64,000 nucleotides of DNA, taken from Aulosira sp. ZfuVER01. Its GTDB lineage: Bacteria > Cyanobacteriota > Cyanobacteriia > Cyanobacteriales > Nostocaceae. The notes beneath the pieces were generated by a model, which saw only the letters and a program-made list of their open reading frames with translations, searched no databases and was not told the origin of the DNA. Positions 18,865-29,523 of this stretch are shown in pieces; positions within the stretch are counted from its first letter, which is position 1, and each line of letters opens with the position of its first letter. A program made the translations under genes and the position numbers. Location: NCBI GenBank assembly GCA_034530615.2, contig JAVRCV020000059.1, positions 64,001 to 128,000 on the forward strand, given 5' to 3'.

Positions 18865-21390
18865 ATGATGACATCTCCAGATACAGCAATTTGGCTACAA
18901 GAACGCACATCTTTAGGAATTCTCTCGCCTGCGGTGTTAGAGGCGATCGCTCAAGTGATGGAAATCCAAGTTGTATCGGAAGGTAGCACCCTAGTGAGCG
19001 AAGGTACTCAGCCAGAAGCACTTTACATTGTCCAAGATGGACACTTGGAAAGCGAAACTAGCAAAACCAACTCCGCTTTACCCCGTGGGTTCCTTCCTGG
19101 AGAAGTCATTAACCTCCAAGAATTACTGTTAGATGAGTTAACTCCATTTACAATTACTACTCTTAACGAATGTCATTTATGGGTGATACCTGCTGAAAAA
19201 TTTCGCGGTTTAGCTACTCAATACTCCGAAATTAATCAGGCTTTTTCTCGGCTGTTGGCGCAAGAATTGGCTGAGGTGACATCTGCTTTAAGCTACCAAC
19301 AAGAACGTACTTTAGCTTTACGTCCATATTTAGTTACTAAGGCGCAACGGGGAATTGTTGGTACAAGTCGCTATGCGGTGCGTCTGCGGGAGCAAATTCG
19401 CGAAGCCGCAAGCGATCGCTTGTCGGTAGAAATTTTTGGCGAACCAGGTTTAGAAAAAGATAATATCGCGGCTCTCATTCACTTTAGTTCCCCCAAGCGG
19501 CGAGAACCAATTATTAAAATAAATTGCGGGATTCTCCAAACCAGTGGTGCAGATTTATTTGGTCGGGCTGGCGGGAAACCCGGACTTTTAGAATGGTTAG
19601 GGGAAGGCACTTTAGTTCTGAATAATATCCAAGAATTGCCCCCAGAGTTATTACCAGCAGTAGCGCAGTTAGTTCAAAAAGATACATATACTCCTGTAAC
19701 TCGTGCTGGAGAACCAAAAGCTGAACCTCGTACTAGTAGAGCCAGGATTTTAATTGTCTCCGAAAGAACTCAGTCAACGATCGAACGCTGCGTTGGTCAT
19801 GTAATTAAAGTGCCACCACTACGGGTACGCAAAGCTGATATTAAAGCTCAGGTAGAATATTACACCAGTCTCTACAGCCGTGCGCGCGGTCTTGCTAAAC
19901 CGCATATTACCCCCGAAGCCTTGCGTCGTTTGCAAGCTTATGATTTCCCTGGCAATCTCAAAGAATTGAAGAATTTGGTAGAAAGAGCGATTGTTCAGGC
20001 GGGAAATGGGAAAGAACTCACAGAAGAAATCTTTTGGTCAGCCGAACCGAAGAAAAAGCAATTTCGCGTTAATTTATTAAATGCCTATCCTCGGTTGCGG
20101 CGGTTTTTGCGTAGTGACTGGTGGCCCGATCGCATTAATTATGGTTTTACCTTTGCAGCCTTTGCTTTTTTGGTAGGTGTGTTGTTTATTGGCCCGCAAA
20201 CACGCGATCGCAATTTTGCTTTAAATCTATTTTGGGCTTGGTGGTGGCCGTTCTTCCTGTTTCTCTTTCCCTTTTTAGGGCGTATCTGGTGTTCAGTCTG
20301 CCCCTTCATGATTTACGGTGAAATTACGCAGAAGTTATCTCTGTGGTTGTTTCCTCGGCAACTCAAGCGCTGGCCGAGGGAGAAAGCTGAGAAATGGGGC
20401 GGCTGGTTTTTATTTGGGCTATTTACCCTAATTTTCTTATGGGAAGAATTGTGGCACTTAGAAAATACAGCTTACCTCTCCGCTTGCTTGCTTTTATTAA
20501 TCACCGCCGGAGCAATGATTTTCTCTGCGATTTTTGAACGGCGGTTTTGGTGTCGTTATCTCTGTCCCATCGGCGGGATGAATGGTTTATTTGCCAAACT
20601 CTCAATGACTGAACTGCGGGCGCAGCAGGGTATCTGTTCTGCAAGTTGCACAACTTATCAATGCTATAAAGGCGGGCCGCAAAAAGGCGAAGGGATGGAA
20701 ACTAACGGCTGTCCTTTATACTCACACCCTGCACAGTTAGAAGATAACAGAGATTGTGTTTTGTGTATGACTTGCCTCAAAGCCTGTCCCCATCGTTCCG
20801 TCGAATTTAACTTGCGTCCCCCAGGAATTGAACTTTGGACAACTCATGTACCCCGCAGCTACGAAGTTGCACTGTTATTTTTAATGTTGGGTGGTGTATA
20901 TCTGCATCGTTTACCAGAATTGCAAGCTTGGTTAGGGCTAAACCTAGATTTAAATATTTTTTGGCAGCACTTAGGATTATCGCTGCTGGCTTTGCTGATT
21001 CCCGTAGCCATTCCCTTTGCTGCATACACGTTAATGCAACTATTGAATTTTGGACGTAAACCCAAAAGATTTATTGAACTTGCTTACGGCTACCTACCAT
21101 TGGTGTTAGGAGCTAACTTAGCCCACTATCTGCGTTTAGGGTTAGGCGAAGGAGGGCGCATTTTACCTGTGGCTTTTGCTACCTTTGGGTTGCATAGCGA
21201 GCAGTTACCTGTATTAGTAGCGCATCCCGCCGTAATTGCCTTTTTGCAAGGTAGTACCCTCATCTTTTCCGTACTTCTTACAATAGTGTTAACTCAAAAA
21301 ATTGCGCGACAACCATTTAAGGTGATGCTTTGGCAACATCTAGCAGCGATCGCTTTAGCTGTTAGTATGTGGGCAATTATTGTGTTGTAA
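18865..21390 (+). CDS. cNMP-binding / sigma54-interaction-like AAA / 4Fe-4S membrane protein
   Basis: N-terminal cNMP domain, FGEPGLEKD degenerate Walker A, WCSVCP, WCRYLCP, CVLCMTCLKACP, many TMs. Confidence 0.85.
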   Translation: MMTSPDTAIWLQERTSLGILSPAVLEAIAQVMEIQVVSEGSTLVSEGTQPEALYIVQDGHLESETSKTNSALPRGFLPGEVINLQELLLDELTPFTITTLNECHLWVIPAEKFRGLATQYSEINQAFSRLLAQELAEVTSALSYQQERTLALRPYLVTKAQRGIVGTSRYAVRLREQIREAASDRLSVEIFGEPGLEKDNIAALIHFSSPKRREPIIKINCGILQTSGADLFGRAGGKPGLLEWLGEGTLVLNNIQELPPELLPAVAQLVQKDTYTPVTRAGEPKAEPRTSRARILIVSERTQSTIERCVGHVIKVPPLRVRKADIKAQVEYYTSLYSRARGLAKPHITPEALRRLQAYDFPGNLKELKNLVERAIVQAGNGKELTEEIFWSAEPKKKQFRVNLLNAYPRLRRFLRSDWWPDRINYGFTFAAFAFLVGVLFIGPQTRDRNFALNLFWAWWWPFFLFLFPFLGRIWCSVCPFMIYGEITQKLSLWLFPRQLKRWPREKAEKWGGWFLFGLFTLIFLWEELWHLENTAYLSACLLLLITAGAMIFSAIFERRFWCRYLCPIGGMNGLFAKLSMTELRAQQGICSASCTTYQCYKGGPQKGEGMETNGCPLYSHPAQLEDNRDCVLCMTCLKACPHRSVEFNLRPPGIELWTTHVPRSYEVALLFLMLGGVYLHRLPELQAWLGLNLDLNIFWQHLGLSLLALLIPVAIPFAAYTLMQLLNFGRKPKRFIELAYGYLPLVLGANLAHYLRLGLGEGGRILPVAFATFGLHSEQLPVLVAHPAVIAFLQGSTLIFSVLLTIVLTQKIARQPFKVMLWQHLAAIALAVSMWAIIVL

Positions 21391-22225
21391 ACCAGGTTTC
21401 TAAATCCGCGATCGCCTGAAAATCTAATAATGCTTCACCTAGATTTTCTAATTGTTCTAAGGTGAGAGATTCAACGCGCGATCGCACGTCTTGGGGTAAT
21501 TCTCCCACACGACGAATAAGTTGACGGAGAACGAGCAATTGTCCTTCTGCTTTTCGTCCTTCTTCCCTTCCGCGTTGTTCTCCGCGTTGTTCGCCTTCAG
21601 CGAGGATTTCTTGATAAATTACTGACTCGCGCATCATACCCTCCCGAAATAATTGTTTAATCAAGCCCCGATCGTATTTTAACCCGGCTAAGATTTGGGT
21701 ATAAGCCGAAATTTCTGGTCTTTGTCTCGGTTCCAGTTGATTAACTTTGGCTATAACTTGTTGCAATAAGGCTTGGGGTTGTGTTGTTGCTGCCAGTGGT
21801 GCTAATGGTAACAAAGCTTCGTCATTGAGAAATAGTTCGGGATTTTCTTCCCACATGGAAATCACTCGATATTCATGACGAGTATTTTCGACTATAAAGG
21901 CAGTTTCAATCACCGTTCCTGGTGCGGGGGGAAGCAATAAGACAACAACTTGCGTGATTGGGAGGCGATACAAACGATACAAGCGTACCCAATAATCAAG
22001 CATTCGCAGGGGTAAGGGTGGTGTAGCTTGGAGTTTGGTTTGAAATTCCAGGTGGAGAATGCGTCCTTCTAGCTGTAAGAATGTGACATAATCAGCGCGA
22101 ATCGGTTCAATGCTCAATTCAGTTTTCAGGACTGTGGCAGAATTTTGTCGTGTACCCAAAACCCAACTGGCAAAACGTTCTGGATATTTTTCGGACAGTA
22201 GTTTGCACAGGTTATCAAAGGACAT
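21377..22225 (-). CDS. Rpn-family PD-(D/E)xK nuclease / putative transposase with DUF4351 tail
   Basis: IRAD...LHLEFQT, RMLDYW, MRESVIYQE, LEQLENLGEALLDF. Confidence 0.85.
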   Translation of the reverse strand: MSFDNLCKLLSEKYPERFASWVLGTRQNSATVLKTELSIEPIRADYVTFLQLEGRILHLEFQTKLQATPPLPLRMLDYWVRLYRLYRLPITQVVVLLLPPAPGTVIETAFIVENTRHEYRVISMWEENPELFLNDEALLPLAPLAATTQPQALLQQVIAKVNQLEPRQRPEISAYTQILAGLKYDRGLIKQLFREGMMRESVIYQEILAEGEQRGEQRGREEGRKAEGQLLVLRQLIRRVGELPQDVRSRVESLTLEQLENLGEALLDFQAIADLETWFTTQ

Positions 22226-22410
22226 TGACAATCAGCAACCATTGAAAGAGACATTGTTATTATCTCGTGCAGTGTTTTGAGTAGGCATGATTAGTTGGAT
22301 AGCTTGGTATCATATCTCTCAGCGTATATTTTTAAATTCTTGTAGATTTTTGTAGTATGTTATGCCAGAGCCTAACGCACCAATCATATATAGTGTAAGG
22401 ATTAAAAATA

Positions 22411-22989: not shown

Positions 22990-24609
22990 TTAGACTTTAC
23001 AAGTCTCAAGGCGAGAGAAGAGATACCCGACTGCCTTCCCACCCAGAATCCGATACGATATCTCATAGGAGGGACTGACGCGCGACGGGAGGTGTCCACG
23101 AGGGGCTGAAGTATTATAAGTTTCAACTACAATCCAGTTGCTTTCGACTCTCCATCCTACGCGATCGCCAAATTTCTTCCAGGCTTGTTCATCATACTTA
23201 CCACCTGGCTTACCACCAACGCTCAAGTAAATTTCTTTTTGAACGCTAAAGCCAAAGCGTCCATTGCTATATTTGACCCAGAGGCGGTCAATGGTGCGGA
23301 GGTCGGTACAGGGAAAGTTTAATAGTTCTTCATCTCTAATCCAGTCATTTTCCTTACGCCCTACCACTTGAAGCATTAGCACATAAGTTTCATAATCAGC
23401 ATCTTTCCACTTACCTGCTGCTAGTAGGTCGCGTAGTTTTGTATAGTCTACGCCTTTTTCTGAACTGAGGTCATTTTCCTTTGTAGCCGATTTAGAGGTA
23501 ATGTTTTTTGCTACCTTGTGCGCCCATTCTCGCTTGCTTTGAGAGGTAAATCGCGCCTCAATGTTTGCAATATCCTCATCTCTAAGTTGCAAAAGCTGCT
23601 GTAATCTCTTCAATTCTGCTTGTGTATGCTGGTTCAGAATCTCTTCATCCTGTATCGCCTCAACCAACGCTTCTTCGTATTCCCTGAGATTCTCTTGATA
23701 CTTGCGGTAAGGTTCCAAAACTTCGTTTTCAATTTGGGTTGCTATCTCAACTGACAAACCCAATTCACTTTGCCGACGTTTGAGAATGCGGCGACCTGTA
23801 ACAGAGACTTTACCATCTCTAACCCATCGTTCTACTTCTTTACGGTAATCTAATTGATGATCGCCTAAAGGAGCTTTCGCTAACTTAATTTTAAAGCCTT
23901 CTTTAATAGCATAAAGTTCTGGCTTCATTGCCGGGGCTGCTTCCTGCACTTTTTTACAGGCATATTCATGCAGTTCATCTACAGAAATCATGCCATCATT
24001 ATCAGTGTCAGCTGCGCCTTTCTCAATCCCTTCGACAATGTAGCGGGTGTAAACCGATAACTCTTCCCCTTCTTGTTCAAAAGAATACTGAGTAGATGTG
24101 GAAGAAGTTAGTACCGCCCTTCCTTCTCCTCCCAGTTGATTCTTGATGTCTAGGCTGTTATCACTTTTCGCTTTCATTCCTTCAGCAAAAGCACCGCTAA
24201 AGCAACAGTCAAGAATAATTACCTGTCGCCGGGAACGGCTATTTTCCATCATCTCATGTATGACTTTGGCAGCAATGGCGGTAGCTTTAATGAGTTCGCC
24301 CTTAGGATTCTTACGAGTTTGGCTAGTTGCTAAATATAATCTGCCAGTTTCATCTTTAATCCCATGTCCAGAGAAATACAACAGTAGTAGGTCATCTTTG
24401 TGACGACCAGAGAACAAGGTTTCAATTGCTTCTTCCATTATCTGGCGTGGGGGATTTTCCAACACTGTAATATCAGTATCAGCAAAATCACCCATTTCTG
24501 GGTGCTGTAACACTCGCTGCATTGCTTTTATATCTTGCACAGCGCTGGGTAAAGCATTTAACCCAGGTTGGTACTCACTAATTCCAATTAGCAATGCTAG
24601 CTTTGCCAT
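22990..24609 (-). CDS. Caspase-like peptidase (C14, EACC1-associated type) with C-terminal GUN4-like domain
   Basis: KLALLIGISEY, YFSGHG (His), ILDCCFSG (Cys); C-terminal LRDLLAAGKWKDADYET...LWVKYSNGRFGFSVQK...PRGHLP. Confidence 0.88.
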   Translation of the reverse strand: MAKLALLIGISEYQPGLNALPSAVQDIKAMQRVLQHPEMGDFADTDITVLENPPRQIMEEAIETLFSGRHKDDLLLLYFSGHGIKDETGRLYLATSQTRKNPKGELIKATAIAAKVIHEMMENSRSRRQVIILDCCFSGAFAEGMKAKSDNSLDIKNQLGGEGRAVLTSSTSTQYSFEQEGEELSVYTRYIVEGIEKGAADTDNDGMISVDELHEYACKKVQEAAPAMKPELYAIKEGFKIKLAKAPLGDHQLDYRKEVERWVRDGKVSVTGRRILKRRQSELGLSVEIATQIENEVLEPYRKYQENLREYEEALVEAIQDEEILNQHTQAELKRLQQLLQLRDEDIANIEARFTSQSKREWAHKVAKNITSKSATKENDLSSEKGVDYTKLRDLLAAGKWKDADYETYVLMLQVVGRKENDWIRDEELLNFPCTDLRTIDRLWVKYSNGRFGFSVQKEIYLSVGGKPGGKYDEQAWKKFGDRVGWRVESNWIVVETYNTSAPRGHLPSRVSPSYEISYRILGGKAVGYLFSRLETCKV

Positions 24610-24617
24610 GTACCTAT

Positions 24618-25010
24618 CTACACTTTTGTAATCTCTTGTATTGCATTTACTGCGGCTTCTAATTCTTGGCGACTGCTGGCTTTGACCTTAACTTTCTTGC
24701 TTTCACCACTTTCTTTGGTTAATTCTAGTTCTATTTCAATGGGTTTGTTACCTAAACGGTCAGTGAGAAAACCCCAAACTTGCTTGACACTATCTGATTT
24801 CACCAAAGCAATCACTTGACCGACAACATAGCCTGTGATTGACTTGCTTCCCACTGGTGCGTTGAGTTCAGCTACTCGGTTAACTTCTTCTACCTCATTG
24901 AGTTCTTTCATTTGATTCAGAAGTCTTTCGGCTTCTTCGTCTTTTTCCTCTTCATCCAAGTCTTGGTCAATAAAGGTGATTGTCAGTTTCAGGTCTGATG
25001 TGTCTGCCAT
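24618..25010 (-). CDS. EACC1-like effector-associated constant component
   Basis: 130 aa, acidic N-terminus, APVGSKS motif, ends 8 nt before caspase start. Confidence 0.7.
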   Translation of the reverse strand: MADTSDLKLTITFIDQDLDEEEKDEEAERLLNQMKELNEVEEVNRVAELNAPVGSKSITGYVVGQVIALVKSDSVKQVWGFLTDRLGNKPIEIELELTKESGESKKVKVKASSRQELEAAVNAIQEITKV

Positions 25011-25640: not shown

Positions 25641-26138
25641 ATGCCAAATGAGCTGTTACAAATTCTAGTGCCTGCATTTATTGGTGCCGCTTCTGGATAT
25701 CTAATTAATCAATTGCCGCCACTGAGAACGTTTCGAGGTAGCAAGTTACTGGTAATTGCTATAGCGATTGAACTTGCGGTTTTGGGAGGAATTTGGGCAT
25801 GGTTAGCTGGAGATGTTGCTAAAACCTCGAATATCAGGGGACTAGTAGAAAAGCTTGGTTTTGCATTATTAGGAGCTTTTGTAGTTAATTTTATGCAACT
25901 TATATTTGGGATCAGTTGGGGTAGACAATCTGCACAACCAACTTTCCCGCAGCCAGGCACAAATGCTGGAACTGTGGTGAGAGGTACAAAGATGACCGGA
26001 AAGGGCAATAAAGCCACAGTTAGCAAAGGAGATGTGTGGGTAGAAAATACTGAAATAGATGGTGAAAACCAGGAATTTTCTGTAACAGATGATTTCAATC
26101 GGCCTTCTTCGCAACAAAATAATACTCCGAATCCATGA
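25641..26138 (+). CDS. Small membrane protein (about 3 TM) with C-terminal 2 x 21-aa pseudo-repeat
   Basis: Three hydrophobic segments, Pro/Gln linker, repeats GTVVRGTKMTGKGNKATVSKG / DVWVENTEIDGENQEFSVTDD; ATGA overlap with next gene. Confidence 0.8.
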   Translation: MPNELLQILVPAFIGAASGYLINQLPPLRTFRGSKLLVIAIAIELAVLGGIWAWLAGDVAKTSNIRGLVEKLGFALLGAFVVNFMQLIFGISWGRQSAQPTFPQPGTNAGTVVRGTKMTGKGNKATVSKGDVWVENTEIDGENQEFSVTDDFNRPSSQQNNTPNP

Positions 26139-26917
26139 TTATCGCCAATCACATGATCGCTAATCGCACGCAGGAAGTTTTACTTTTTGAGCAGATGGTA
26201 GCGGGAAGCTTTACCAAACGAGTGCTACTGATTGAAGGTAAATCTGGTTTTGGTAAGACTTGGTTACTGGCTCGGTTGAAACAAACTCTGCCTCTAAAGA
26301 CGTTATGTGTACAAGTAGATTTCAAATTACCACAACCAGGCATTCCTGATATTTTTTTTTATATACGCAGGCGTTTGGGAAAGGAAAATTTTCCTCAGTT
26401 AAATGCTGCTTCTGAGCGATATTTGAGTTCGGGGATACAAATCTGTGACACTACAATGATTGGAAAAGATAACCAATTTAGTGTAGTTTTGAGCAATTTA
26501 GATGAGAGTACACGAAATTTTCGCTTGACTCTATTAAGAGAAGCATTTTTTGAGGACTTGCGTAAAATTCCCCAAAAACTAGTTTTTTTGTTTGATTCTT
26601 ACGAAAAAGCCCCTACTGAACTGGCAAATTGGTTAGAGGGTGAATTCTTAGCAGAAGTTGTCTATACACCCAAATTAATTGTAGTAATTGCCGGACAGCA
26701 GATTCCTCAAGCAACAATCGAATGGATAGATTTACATCATTGTTGTTCTTTGGAAGCCATTTTGGAATTAAAAGCATGGTGTGAATACGCCCAAAATGAA
26801 AGATTATCCCTGAATCACTATGAAGTGAATGCAGCGATGGTTCTGTGTAAAGGGCAACCTGCTGAAATTGCGGCAGCCTTAAAGACGCTAGAGGCGGAAG
26901 CGAGGAAAAGGCAATGA
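26135..26917 (+). CDS. Stand-alone STAND/AAA_16-like P-loop NTPase
   Basis: Walker A LLIEGKSGFGKT, Walker B LVFLFDSYE; ATGA overlaps at both ends. Confidence 0.85.
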   Translation: MIIANHMIANRTQEVLLFEQMVAGSFTKRVLLIEGKSGFGKTWLLARLKQTLPLKTLCVQVDFKLPQPGIPDIFFYIRRRLGKENFPQLNAASERYLSSGIQICDTTMIGKDNQFSVVLSNLDESTRNFRLTLLREAFFEDLRKIPQKLVFLFDSYEKAPTELANWLEGEFLAEVVYTPKLIVVIAGQQIPQATIEWIDLHHCCSLEAILELKAWCEYAQNERLSLNHYEVNAAMVLCKGQPAEIAAALKTLEAEARKRQ

Positions 26918-29523
26918 ATAATCCTTTATTAGAGAAGCTAGCAAAGGCACAAACAGACGAAGAACGTTTTTGGATTGTAACTGAGAGTTTACTTTCGACG
27001 CTTTCACCTGATTTAGCAGCAGTAGCGTGGGCTGCGGCAATTCCTCACTGGTTTAATGCAGATATCTTGGCGGCACTGCGTCCAGAATTGCAAGCACAAG
27101 CATCTCAGCTTTATATTGAATTGCAAGGCTTACCTTTCGTAGAAGAGTTTCCACGTCAAGGGCATAATATTCACGATTTAACACGACGGCAAATGTTAAA
27201 TCACTTGTGGCATGAGCATCGAAATGAATTTATGACGATGTCACAACGAGCAGCAGAGTATTTTTTCAGCAGCTATGAGCGTCAAGAAAAGATAAATGAC
27301 CAGCCAGAAACTCAAATTGAATGGCTGTATCACTTAGTGGTAATTGACCCAGAATGGAAAGGTAGTGAGCTTAGGGATTTAGCAAAAAACTGGGTGAATA
27401 ATTTTCGCACTGCTGAACTAGAATATCTGATTGGAGCATTACTAGAACAGATTACAGCAGAGCGAGTGGCAACACTTGCTAAAGCAGAAACTTACTTTTG
27501 GGCAGGTAGAGCGAAATTTCAATTTTCTAAGACAACAGAAGCTTTAGAGAGCTACAAAGCAGCATTAGAATTCTACCGCCAGATGGGTAATCATTTGGGG
27601 GAAGCTAATACCTTAAAAGCAATCGGTGATGTCTTGCACTTCCAAAAACAAACTACTGAAGCCTTAGAAAGCTATGAAGCGGCATTGGCATTCTACCGTG
27701 ACATGGTCGTTAGCGAAGTTCCTCCTTTGGAGGCTCGCTTGGGGGAAGCTAATACCTTAAAAGCAATCGGCGATGTCTTGCAGTTGCTTGACCGATGCAG
27801 CGAAGCCTTAGAAAGCTACGAAGCAGCATTGATATCCTACCGTGACATTGTCGTTAGCGAAGTTTCTCCTTTGGAGGCTCGCTTGGAGAAAGCTAATATC
27901 CTAAAAGCAATCGGTGATGTCTTGCAGTTCCTTGACCGACGCAGCAAAGCCTTAGAAAGCTACCAAGAAGCATTGGTATCCTACAGCCAGATTAGTGCTC
28001 GTTTGGGGGAAGCCAATACATTAAAAGCAATCGGCGATGTTTTACAGTTCCAAAAAGACAGTAGTGGAGCCTTAAAAAACTACAAAATGGCATTGAGACT
28101 CTACCGCCAAATTAATGCTCACCTGGGGGAAGCTAATACTTTAAGAGCAATGGGTGATGTCTTGCAGTTCCAAAAAGACAGTAGTGGAGCCTTAAAAAAC
28201 TACAAAGCAGCATTGACATTGTACCGCCAGATTGGCGATCGCTTAGGGGAAGCCAATACCTTAAAAGCAATCGGCGATGTTTTGAAGTTCCAAAAAGACA
28301 GTATTAAAGCTTTAAATAAATACGAAACCGCATTGGAATTATACCGCCAGATTAGCGCTCGCTTGGGGGAAGCCAATACTTTAAGAGCAGTCGGCGATGT
28401 TTTGCAGTTCCAAAAAGACAGTACTAGAGCCTTAGAATGCTATGAAGCAGCATTGGAATTATACCACCAGATTGGCGATCGCTTGGGGGAAGCCAATACT
28501 TTAAGAGTAATCGGCGATGTTTTGCAGTTCCAAAAAGACAGTACTCAAGCCTTAACTAAATACGAAGCGGCACTGCGCTTATACCACGACGTAGGCGATC
28601 GATTGGGAGAAGCTAATACTTTAAGAGCAATCGGTGATGTCTTGCAGTTCCTTGACCGAAAAACCGAAGCCTTAGAACGCTACCAAGAAGCATTAGCATC
28701 CTACCAACAGATTGAAGCTCGCTTGGGAGAAGCTAATACTTTAAAAGCGATCGGCGATGTTTTGCAGTCTCAAAGAAGTAGTACTGAAGCCTTACAAAAC
28801 TACGAAGCAGCATTTGCGTTATACCGCGACATTGTTGATCTTTTAGGAGAAGCTAACACCTTAAAAGCAATTGGCGATGTTTTGCAGTCCCAAGGAAGCA
28901 GTACTGAAGCCTTAGAACGCTACGCAGCGTCATTGGAATTATACCGTCGGATTGGTGCTCGTCTTGGAGAAGCTAATACTTTACAGGCAATCGGTGATGT
29001 TTTGCAATCTCGGGAAAATAGTGACGAAGCCTTAGAACGCTACGAAGCAGCATTGGAATTATACCGTCAGATTGGCGCTTGCTTAGGAGAAGCTAATACT
29101 TTACAGGCAATGGGTGATGTCTTACGCTTCCTTAAGCGACACACCAAAGCTTTAGAGCGCTACGAAGAAGCATTGACATTATGTCGTCAAATCAGATATC
29201 GCTTGGGAGAAGCTAATACTTTACAAGCTATAGGAATCTTACAAGAAAATTTAACTTCGGGTTTAACGTATTGTCAGGAAGCATTAAAATTGTATAACCA
29301 AATGAGTGATAAGTATAGCCAAAGTCGGAATTTAATATACTTTACATCTGAAATTCTCTTAAAACTAGGACGACAACAAGAAGCATTAGATACCCTCCAT
29401 CAAGCTATTGATCTTGCTAGTGAAATTCCCTATCAAAAATTGGTAAACGTTGCCTCAGAAAAAATTAGCGAAATCCACAGATCAGCACGGGATAATGCAA
29501 AGAGTGAGAGACGCGGAGATTAA
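26914..29523 (+). CDS. Winged-helix (STAND-associated) + TPR-repeat protein
   Basis: N-terminal AAAIPHWF...LPFVE...NIHDLTR (MHD-like), then ~14-15 40-aa repeats LGEANTLKAIGDVLQF. Confidence 0.88.
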   Translation: MNNPLLEKLAKAQTDEERFWIVTESLLSTLSPDLAAVAWAAAIPHWFNADILAALRPELQAQASQLYIELQGLPFVEEFPRQGHNIHDLTRRQMLNHLWHEHRNEFMTMSQRAAEYFFSSYERQEKINDQPETQIEWLYHLVVIDPEWKGSELRDLAKNWVNNFRTAELEYLIGALLEQITAERVATLAKAETYFWAGRAKFQFSKTTEALESYKAALEFYRQMGNHLGEANTLKAIGDVLHFQKQTTEALESYEAALAFYRDMVVSEVPPLEARLGEANTLKAIGDVLQLLDRCSEALESYEAALISYRDIVVSEVSPLEARLEKANILKAIGDVLQFLDRRSKALESYQEALVSYSQISARLGEANTLKAIGDVLQFQKDSSGALKNYKMALRLYRQINAHLGEANTLRAMGDVLQFQKDSSGALKNYKAALTLYRQIGDRLGEANTLKAIGDVLKFQKDSIKALNKYETALELYRQISARLGEANTLRAVGDVLQFQKDSTRALECYEAALELYHQIGDRLGEANTLRVIGDVLQFQKDSTQALTKYEAALRLYHDVGDRLGEANTLRAIGDVLQFLDRKTEALERYQEALASYQQIEARLGEANTLKAIGDVLQSQRSSTEALQNYEAAFALYRDIVDLLGEANTLKAIGDVLQSQGSSTEALERYAASLELYRRIGARLGEANTLQAIGDVLQSRENSDEALERYEAALELYRQIGACLGEANTLQAMGDVLRFLKRHTKALERYEEALTLCRQIRYRLGEANTLQAIGILQENLTSGLTYCQEALKLYNQMSDKYSQSRNLIYFTSEILLKLGRQQEALDTLHQAIDLASEIPYQKLVNVASEKISEIHRSARDNAKSERRGD

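Follow-up and report, generated by a model that had tools for sequence, protein, structure and literature searches.

A conserved split STAND/NLR receptor operon of Aulosira with a candidate amyloid-type motif inside its NTPase

Amyloid signalling between a receptor and the effector encoded next to it has been described in bacterial BASS pairs and in fungi, with matching motifs in the products of adjacent genes, two motif repeats in the effector versus one in the receptor, a composition rich in N, G, V and I, and exchange of the motif with direct fusion as hallmarks (10.1101/2020.01.06.895854; 10.1101/2024.11.07.622273). The receptor motif is N-terminal in the described amyloid systems (10.1101/2020.01.06.895854, 10.1101/2024.11.07.622273, PMC7889193, PMC13506858). 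Earlier screens for amyloid motifs covered receptor N-termini and one-chain NLRs (NOD-like receptors), so that a family with a split receptor and an internal tag would be missed by them. In Apaf-1, the interface between helical domain 1 (HD1) and the winged-helix domain (WHD) is the activation pivot, and a winged-helix histidine helps to hold the closed state (PMC5050015). Here we describe a three-gene operon of Aulosira sp. ZfuVER01 (GCA_034530615.2), located in a 64,000 nt stretch of contig JAVRCV020000059.1 (positions 64,001-128,000; the window, to which all coordinates without a locus label refer). The operon almost certainly encodes a truly split receptor of the STAND (signal transduction ATPases with numerous domains)/NLR type, and a 17-residue motif is shared between its first product, a predicted membrane protein, and an internal stretch of its NTPase.

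Operon layout and conservation of the gene split

The operon consists of three open reading frames (ORFs):

25641-26138, + strand: ORF1, 165 aa, predicted membrane effector
26135-26917, + strand: ORF2, 260 aa, stand-alone STAND NTPase (nucleotide-binding domain, NBD, and HD1) that stops before the winged helix
26902-26911, + strand: purine-rich sequence GAGGAAAAGG, two bases 5' of the ORF3 start, putative ribosome-binding site
26914-29523, + strand: ORF3, 869 aa, winged helix, arm and tetratricopeptide repeats (TPR)

An earlier note on this DNA had argued for a genuine split from ATGA stop/start overlaps and from a purine-rich stretch before ORF3. Both overlaps are present, at 26135-26138 (ORF1/ORF2) and 26914-26917 (ORF2/ORF3), and the purine-rich stretch was found at the position listed above, with a putative role in ribosome binding. 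By itself an overlap is weak evidence of a split, since 104/1693 adjacent long-ORF pairs of the same genome permit one, and it is conservation that decides. The three-gene arrangement is identical in 12/12 close Nostocales loci (63-73% identity). A metagenome scan yielded 84 stretches representing 80 loci, of which 73 are split, 6 leave the contig, 1 lacks downstream room and none is fused. The pattern used covers the core from Walker B to sensor-1 and ignores what comes after the NTPase, and therefore does not select for split forms; the set it came from consisted mainly of stand-alone proteins, and a locus was called split if its downstream gene matched an ORF3 N-terminal profile for which 17 other loci had been used. 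With all close loci and 73/80 metagenome loci cut at the same point, the split is genuine. The 4-base overlap is kept in 77/110 split loci, redundant ones counted.

Among 171 family proteins, 126 could be parsed; 122 of these stop at most 40 residues past the NTPase model, three run on for more than 100 residues and one for 55. A search for longer relatives gave one match among 8000 candidates, at 30% identity, and the fused full-length relatives that exist (P0084, P0108, P0162, P0197 and L045) are distant, with P0197 at 30% identity. Chloroflexota loci are cut at the same point. The split is old and conserved. Since close homologues are cut at the same place, none of them fused, and the defence catalogue PADLOC gave no system-level match, neither of the two observations named in the earlier note as telling against a split receptor was made, and that reading is supported.

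The domain content of ORF2 and ORF3 locates the cut within the receptor:

26237-26260, + strand: Walker A, GKSGFGKT (G40 and K41 invariant in 86 sequences)
26588-26605, + strand: Walker B, LFDSYE within FLFDSYE (D154 invariant in 86 sequences)
26914-27570, + strand: ORF3 N-terminal part, winged helix and helical arm, with MHD-like NIHDLTR at 27166-27186
27595-29322, + strand: ORF3 sensor array, 14 TPR-type repeats of 40 aa (two of 48 aa), TPR_12 E 7.2e-86

ORF2 matches the NACHT profile with E 4.8e-6 and 26.9 bits, barely over the 26.7-bit cut-off, besides weak AAA and STAND matches. Its AlphaFold2 model (predicted local distance difference test, pLDDT, 92) comprises NBD and HD1, in line with the earlier suggestion that this frame ends past the P-loop and helical part. 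Among 48,161 solved chains its best fold match is MalT (8bob_D residues 11-235; Z 16.3, root-mean-square deviation (rmsd) 3.0, 214 aligned), with TnsC (7m99; Z 13.6, rmsd 3.8, 208 aligned) and MuB (8xvb; Z 13.3, rmsd 3.5, 201 aligned) also near. The winged-helix-like segment proposed for the start of ORF3 is likewise borne out, with LPFVE at residues 73-77 and NIHDLTR at 85-91 followed by the TPR-type repeats; H87 is at least 90% conserved and R91 invariant. The model of ORF3 residues 1-219 (pLDDT 94) best matches MalT (8bob_D 247-417; Z 14.1, rmsd 5.0, 160 aligned), followed by Apaf-1 (1z6t 337-571; Z 10.4, rmsd 6.5, 192 aligned), PH0952 and CED-4, amid TPR-only chains. This wide structural alignment was used because Foldseek, run with the model of the ORF3 N-terminus, returned no match reaching E 0.001, its top row nonetheless being a STAND protein. 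Because ORF2 (11-235) and ORF3 (247-417) tile MalT without overlap, the models place the cut between HD1 and the winged helix, at the activation hinge. A STAND protein with NBD, HD1, winged helix and sensor in one polypeptide is not what is found here, as translation stops and restarts at 26914-26917; the remaining STAND domains and motifs are present, namely a Walker A/B NBD with HD1 in ORF2, and a winged helix with MHD-like motif, arm and repeats in ORF3. The TPR repeats share a mean pairwise DNA identity of 0.70 (range 0.34-0.89) and ORF3 varies in length from about 330 to 870 aa among close relatives, TPR array included, and this repetitiveness and length variation fit a diversifying ligand sensor.

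The family comprises 2745 clusters at E up to 0.001, and 162 clusters (50% identity) at E up to 1e-30. Its distribution is patchy: a full-length match with E <1e-40 occurs in 8/401 genomes of the phylum (six candidates were scored per genome, so that misses are possible), the operon family is present in 1/14 genomes of the same genus, and flanking genes change between close relatives. A pattern search of viral contigs and a tblastn search of plasmids gave no match, and searches for conserved stretches across related loci with diverse alignments found none. The operon has a G+C content of 0.40-0.44, similar to the remaining window, and scans of it for promoters and terminators gave chance-level results only. 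Of the named homologues, those in Nostoc and Calothrix are closest; by its relatives the genome is cyanobacterial. One deep contig spans both junctions without differences; it is not independent, and the run may be the window's own source.

Several further observations were made on family members. The start of ORF2 reads MIIANHMIANRT compared with MIIANRT in relatives (26135-26170, + strand), a short tandem duplication with a second ATG at 26153. In Candidatus Electrothrix, a fused 1388-aa member lies between NTPase-like and radical-SAM-like genes (L045:4192-11218; labels by eye). The Aulosira genome itself has two distant paralogues of the fused STAND-TPR type, at L016:5753-8203 (C46) and L017:6628-10116 (C15), the latter in two frames and broken within the TPR region. 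An ORF3 homologue with a TIR domain directly after winged helix and arm is encoded at L015:8081-11486, in two frames, and at L081:5266-8685, as a single 1139-aa frame. Other ORF3 frames end in PipX (L012:6055-7380), ribosomal L23 (L101:1243-2778) and sigma70 region 4 (L077:3675-5330), which could result from read-through into an adjacent gene, from the capture of decoys or from assembly. In three Nostocales loci a 21-base tandem repeat with IDKITIF-like frames lies directly 3' of ORF3 (L022:7234-7455, L024:6351-6587, L029:4722-4958).

A motif shared by ORF1 and the NTPase

The split receptor of the earlier note stands, and its account was incomplete in two respects: it left ORF1 unexplained, and it overlooked a motif common to the ORF1 tail and the NTPase loop. 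ORF1 features three hydrophobic segments (about residues 4-22, 37-55 and 73-91; hydropathy peaks 1.6, 2.2 and 2.0), followed by a Pro/Gln/Gly linker, two motif repeats and a disordered tail. It matches no family in Pfam, NCBIfam or PADLOC, and has 24 homologues besides itself. The motif copies are:

25971-26021, + strand: ORF1 motif repeat 1, residues 111-127, TVVRGTKMTGKGNKATV
26034-26084, + strand: ORF1 motif repeat 2, residues 132-148, VWVENTEIDGENQEFSV
26435-26485, + strand: ORF2 internal motif copy, residues 101-117, IQICDTTMIGKDNQFSV, between helix 87-99 and the pre-Walker B helix

In a comparison of profiles, the ORF1 tail family matches the NTPase family at the internal motif stretch (E 2.3e-5, probability 76%). 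Matched variants are evident by eye, with FSENDV in the partner and FSENDI in the NTPase at one locus (L080), and NQLTGEGSSI and NRLTGEGSQI, respectively, at another (L079). NTPase inserts score higher against the tail of their cognate upstream protein than against non-cognate tails at three redundancy cuts (34.2 versus 25.6, n=68; 33.3 versus 24.9, n=39; 35.1 versus 23.8, n=18; permutation p≤5e-5 each), and two control NTPase segments in the same permutation test gave p 0.027-0.52. The shuffled cognate tail was outscored in 28/39 cases. Sister pairs, which do not overlap and so limit the effect of kinship, gave positive contrasts in 15/19 cases at a 60% identity cut (sign p 0.0096); at an 80% cut, 17 of 27 were positive, 8 negative and 2 tied (sign p 0.054, Wilcoxon 0.014), and control segments were negative. 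Two loci with mis-called upstream frames (L118, L141) are included in the cognate-pair and sister-pair tests. Two repeats were counted in 28/39 upstream proteins (partly in-sample), and the NTPases carry one copy in 28/39 cases, none in 11 and never more. The motif is rich in V, G, N, K and I, with P at 0.1%, a composition near the bias of BASS motifs (10.1101/2020.01.06.895854). The tail profile finds one copy in its own genome and nothing beyond E 1.3 in the PDB, and so is without sequence match to solved structures. The motif stretch of ORF2 is of low confidence in the AlphaFold2 model (pLDDT 59-67). A search of PDB sequences with the NTPase family profile returned mostly Rab GTPases via the P-loop and did not place the insert, and the predicted complex of ORF2 with the ORF1 tail (score 0.02, mark 0.32) gave no evidence either way. 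Taken together, the motif very probably constitutes a homotypic link between ORF2 and ORF1. As in BASS pairs, a matching short motif is found in the products of adjacent genes, and the C-terminal effector motif occurs as pseudo-repeats; the N-terminal NLR motif of such pairs is absent, as ORF2 begins at the NBD and carries its copy at residues 101-117.

Most upstream partners that carry the main motif are about 90-140 residues long and have a single N-terminal hydrophobic helix; two or three such helices occur in some, ORF1 among them, so that the membrane part differs while the tag persists. Charge bias places the tail in the cytoplasm for 27/30 one-helix partners. The motif also occurs in upstream partners of other kinds, namely an alpha/beta hydrolase, CHAT proteins and EAD7 proteins, the latter in three loci (L117, L120, L137). 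For 19 partners lacking CHAT and NTPase domains, searches gave no telling family match, the Bell (HeLo-like) effector domain included, and in atlas searches ORF1 found no match, whilst a one-helix partner matched unnamed clusters only.

The internal site is occupied in a way that depends on how the effector is attached. A repeat profile built from upstream proteins only scores at least 5 bits in 75/90 stand-alone NTPases of ordinary insert length, and in 1/11 NTPases with an N-terminally fused domain. Such fusions include TIR, CHAT, EAD4, EAD7 and HTH (P0155), and in NTPases fused to DUF4062 or SEFIR/TIR (L099, L155, L158) Walker A and B lie 74-78 residues apart, versus about 110. In a quick tree of 61 rows with many open forks, used solely for this placement, the fused NTPases that lack the motif occupy three distinct positions (a clade of six rows, L014 and L115). 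In 7/9 long-insert proteins scanned, EAD7 lies inside the NTPase at the motif site (L043:2981-4078, E 1.3e-21); EADs have been proposed to act as homotypic adaptors (PMC7159879). The internal copy is lost or replaced where the effector is coupled otherwise. A Chloroflexota class carries a different, longer glycine-rich insert, of which 2/17 score with the first profile; it matches the upstream tail in L035 and L038 (p 0.002), and by eye in L036, the partner assigned by script in L036 having proved to be a wrong frame. The L036 and L038 partners are CHAT proteins, and most of the 12 loci of this class are without an adjacent partner. At L014:5129-9668, a CHAT-NTPase fusion without motif is nevertheless split before the winged helix; the 134-aa gene preceding it is one that we provisionally take to be Trypco/Pepco-like.

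Candidate mechanism and alternative readings

The STAND fold features an ISM-type helix pair before Walker B. By topology, the ORF2 motif would occupy the equivalent of the Apaf-1 loop that connects the ISM helix to the helix after it and lines the central pore of the ring (PMC5050015); if so, ring formation would crowd the motif copies and seed a beta-solenoid. By analogy with described amyloid systems, we lean towards an amyloid-type link ending in membrane damage. ORF3 would bind ORF2 and hold it off via the histidine of its MHD-like motif. Binding of a ligand to the TPR array, probably of a protein from a phage, would release ORF2 or shift its position. Freed ORF2 would then exchange nucleotide and oligomerise, the motif copies being crowded in the central-pore loop of the ring into a beta-solenoid seed. 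This seed would template the two-repeat ORF1 tail, clustering the membrane helices and damaging the membrane, and the infected cell would be killed or arrested. We give even odds to a more general reading, a widespread class of two-chain NLRs whose sensor half detaches at the hinge, the pore loop of the NTPase ring serving as a plug-in signalling socket. In most members this socket would hold an amyloid seed able to turn a minimal membrane protein into a killer of the cell, in others EAD7, and it would be empty where an effector is fused.

A number of observations weigh against this interpretation. Regarding the motif, 11/39 inserts fail to beat the shuffled tail, the cognate tail ranks first for only 5/39 inserts (median rank 6), the window's own sister pair scores -4, and 15/90 stand-alone NTPases remain below 5 bits. 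In the Chloroflexota class, only 2/12 loci gave a credible scripted match with an adjacent partner, and one unrelated Chloroflexota neighbour likewise passed the shuffle test. The motif contains 8.5% K, more than BASS motifs, which are depleted in K, and AlphaFold2 renders part of the internal copy (111-121) as a low-confidence helix rather than a strand. The pore-loop placement has the topological basis given above, and an internal loop tethered at both ends may hinder solenoid folding, the described tags being terminal. Most family members carry Gln rather than Arg at the sensor-1 position, which makes ATPase behaviour uncertain. Family library searches gave no match of ORF1 to a known pore-forming family. 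Finally, no defence-island context was shown for the operon, and the neighbouring caspase pair described below proved unconnected with it.

The most serious competitor, though an unlikely one, is that the matched motifs assemble into a finite structure, a beta-solenoid of three rungs or a beta-zipper, which only docks the NTPase on ORF1, the latter being an anchor or adaptor and effectors being recruited in trans. Many partners do consist of one hydrophobic helix without known toxic fold, the EAD7 found alongside the motif in three partners suits an adaptor, and an internal motif tethered at both ends would suit docking. Against docking, helix and repeats make up the entire partner in many loci with no further conserved operon gene seen, recognised effectors (hydrolase, CHAT) occupy the same position elsewhere, and the number of membrane helices ranges from one to three with the tag unchanged. 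Doubtful, and more so than docking, is a guard or toxin-antitoxin arrangement with a constitutively active ORF2 and ORF3 as its labile, detachable inhibitor. An equally doubtful trigger goes with it, the loss or sequestration of ORF3, e.g. upon host shut-off, instead of ligand-induced rotation, with the same output to ORF1 through the motif. The cut does remove the domain that locks the closed state, translational coupling is retained in those 77/110 split loci, and AAA+ proteins of similar size with NBD and helical domain, i.e. TnsC and MuB, form filaments. However, ORF3 keeps a long, repetitive and length-variable TPR array as expected of a diversifying ligand sensor, and the winged helix of Apaf-1 belongs to the active ring (PMC5050015). 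It is improbable that the operon is a regulatory or developmental module of filamentous bacteria, resembling MalT-type STAND regulators and unrelated to defence: the top fold match is indeed the regulator MalT, the relative P0155 carries an N-terminal HTH and no PADLOC system matches, but presence is patchy with flanks that change between close relatives, fusions and neighbours comprise TIR, SEFIR, DUF4062, CHAT, EAD4, EAD7 and hydrolase, and a profile library scan found no DNA-binding domain in the operon. That the operon is one NLR gene, frameshifted or in decay, and that ORF1 and ORF2 resemble each other by chance through low complexity, a view to which the existence of fused relatives and the frequency of chance overlaps might lend credence, is refuted by the conservation of the split, fused forms being distant and absent from all 80 metagenome loci and 12 close ones, and by motif matching that is pair-specific and missing from control segments.

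If the amyloid-type reading is true, the motor and the sensor of an NLR can work as two separate chains and an NTPase can harbour a signalling tag; amyloid nucleation within an enzyme fold at the ring axis would be a new signalosome geometry, and a membrane effector as small as about 100 residues would add a new executor of bacterial cell death. With the two chains separate, one can ask directly whether the winged helix acts only as a lock or is needed in the active ring, and whether the geometry of the oligomer suffices to nucleate a signalling amyloid. The many tag pairs found in nature, matched or mismatched, provide a ready specificity series.

Defence context and comparison with known systems

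With the 2023 PADLOC library, ORF1 gave no match, ORF2 matches of E 0.005 or weaker, and ORF3 repeat-driven TPR matches alone. On the opposite strand, two genes form a divergent pair at 22990-25010: one product is EACC1-like and 130 aa long, the other is an EACC1-associated caspase with a GUN4 fusion (NF047832, E 7.6e-55), with a PADLOC PD-T4-6 match on the GUN4 part; a paralogous pair is present on contig C71. Such EACC1-caspase pairs are of a known kind (PMC7159879, PMC12642450). A link with the operon was rejected, 0/23 other loci holding either gene in the DNA fetched, as was a relationship of the ORF1 family with EACC1 (profile comparison probability 0.2%). A DUF4351-tailed protein (21377-22231, - strand; E 8.2e-23) adjoins the caspase gene.

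A literature search found no description of a split STAND protein with an internal motif in the portions of text covered, and the tables of the STAND survey and BASS papers may bear on novelty. The word "split" is missing from the main texts of PMC7159879 and PMC8195603. A survey of 589 STAND clades mentions split proteins once, in its methods, and its tables may list this clade (10.64898/2026.01.04.697583).

Among described systems, those based on BASS1-10 Bell/NLR pairs share with this operon adjacent and often overlapping genes and an N/G/V/I-rich C-terminal effector motif that is matched in the NLR; some BASS families, and HRAM, also have two repeats in the effector versus one in the NLR, and hydrolase, TIR and CHAT as alternative partners and occurrence in multicellular bacteria are further common traits (10.1101/2020.01.06.895854). 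Unlike in BASS1-10, where the motif was sought and found at NLR N-termini (10.1101/2020.01.06.895854), it lies here inside the NTPase fold, the receptor is made of two proteins, and the effector is a membrane protein of one to three helices in which no Bell family was detected. In the Bab/Agp system (BASS11), an amyloid tag likewise joins a TPR-bearing sensor to a small membrane-targeting effector, and the motif also accompanies TIR, CHAT and EAD7; Agp, however, is a TPR-GreA/B-PIN protein with N-terminal tag and no NTPase, and Bab has a helical Bell-related domain (10.1101/2024.11.07.622273). The mechanism proposed here would resemble that of fungal NWD2/HET-S, in which NLR oligomerisation templates the two-repeat beta-solenoid tail of a membrane-damaging effector encoded next to it, with the difference that the fungal NLR is a single chain with N-terminal R0 motif and the effector is of the HeLo type (PMC7889193, PMC9815663). 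With EAD-coupled conflict systems the operon family has in common the use of homotypic adaptors in place of effector-core fusion, and the presence of EAD7, EAD4, CHAT and TIR (PMC7159879, PMC8195603), whereas here the adaptor is placed inside the NTPase, where a short beta-motif can take its place. The NBD-HD1 and WHD-arm-repeat folds, the MHD-like motif and the TPR sensor are those of MalT, Apaf-1, PH0952 and Avs3/4, all of them single chains; in the Aulosira operon, by contrast, the chain is cut at the HD1/WHD hinge and carries no N-terminal effector.

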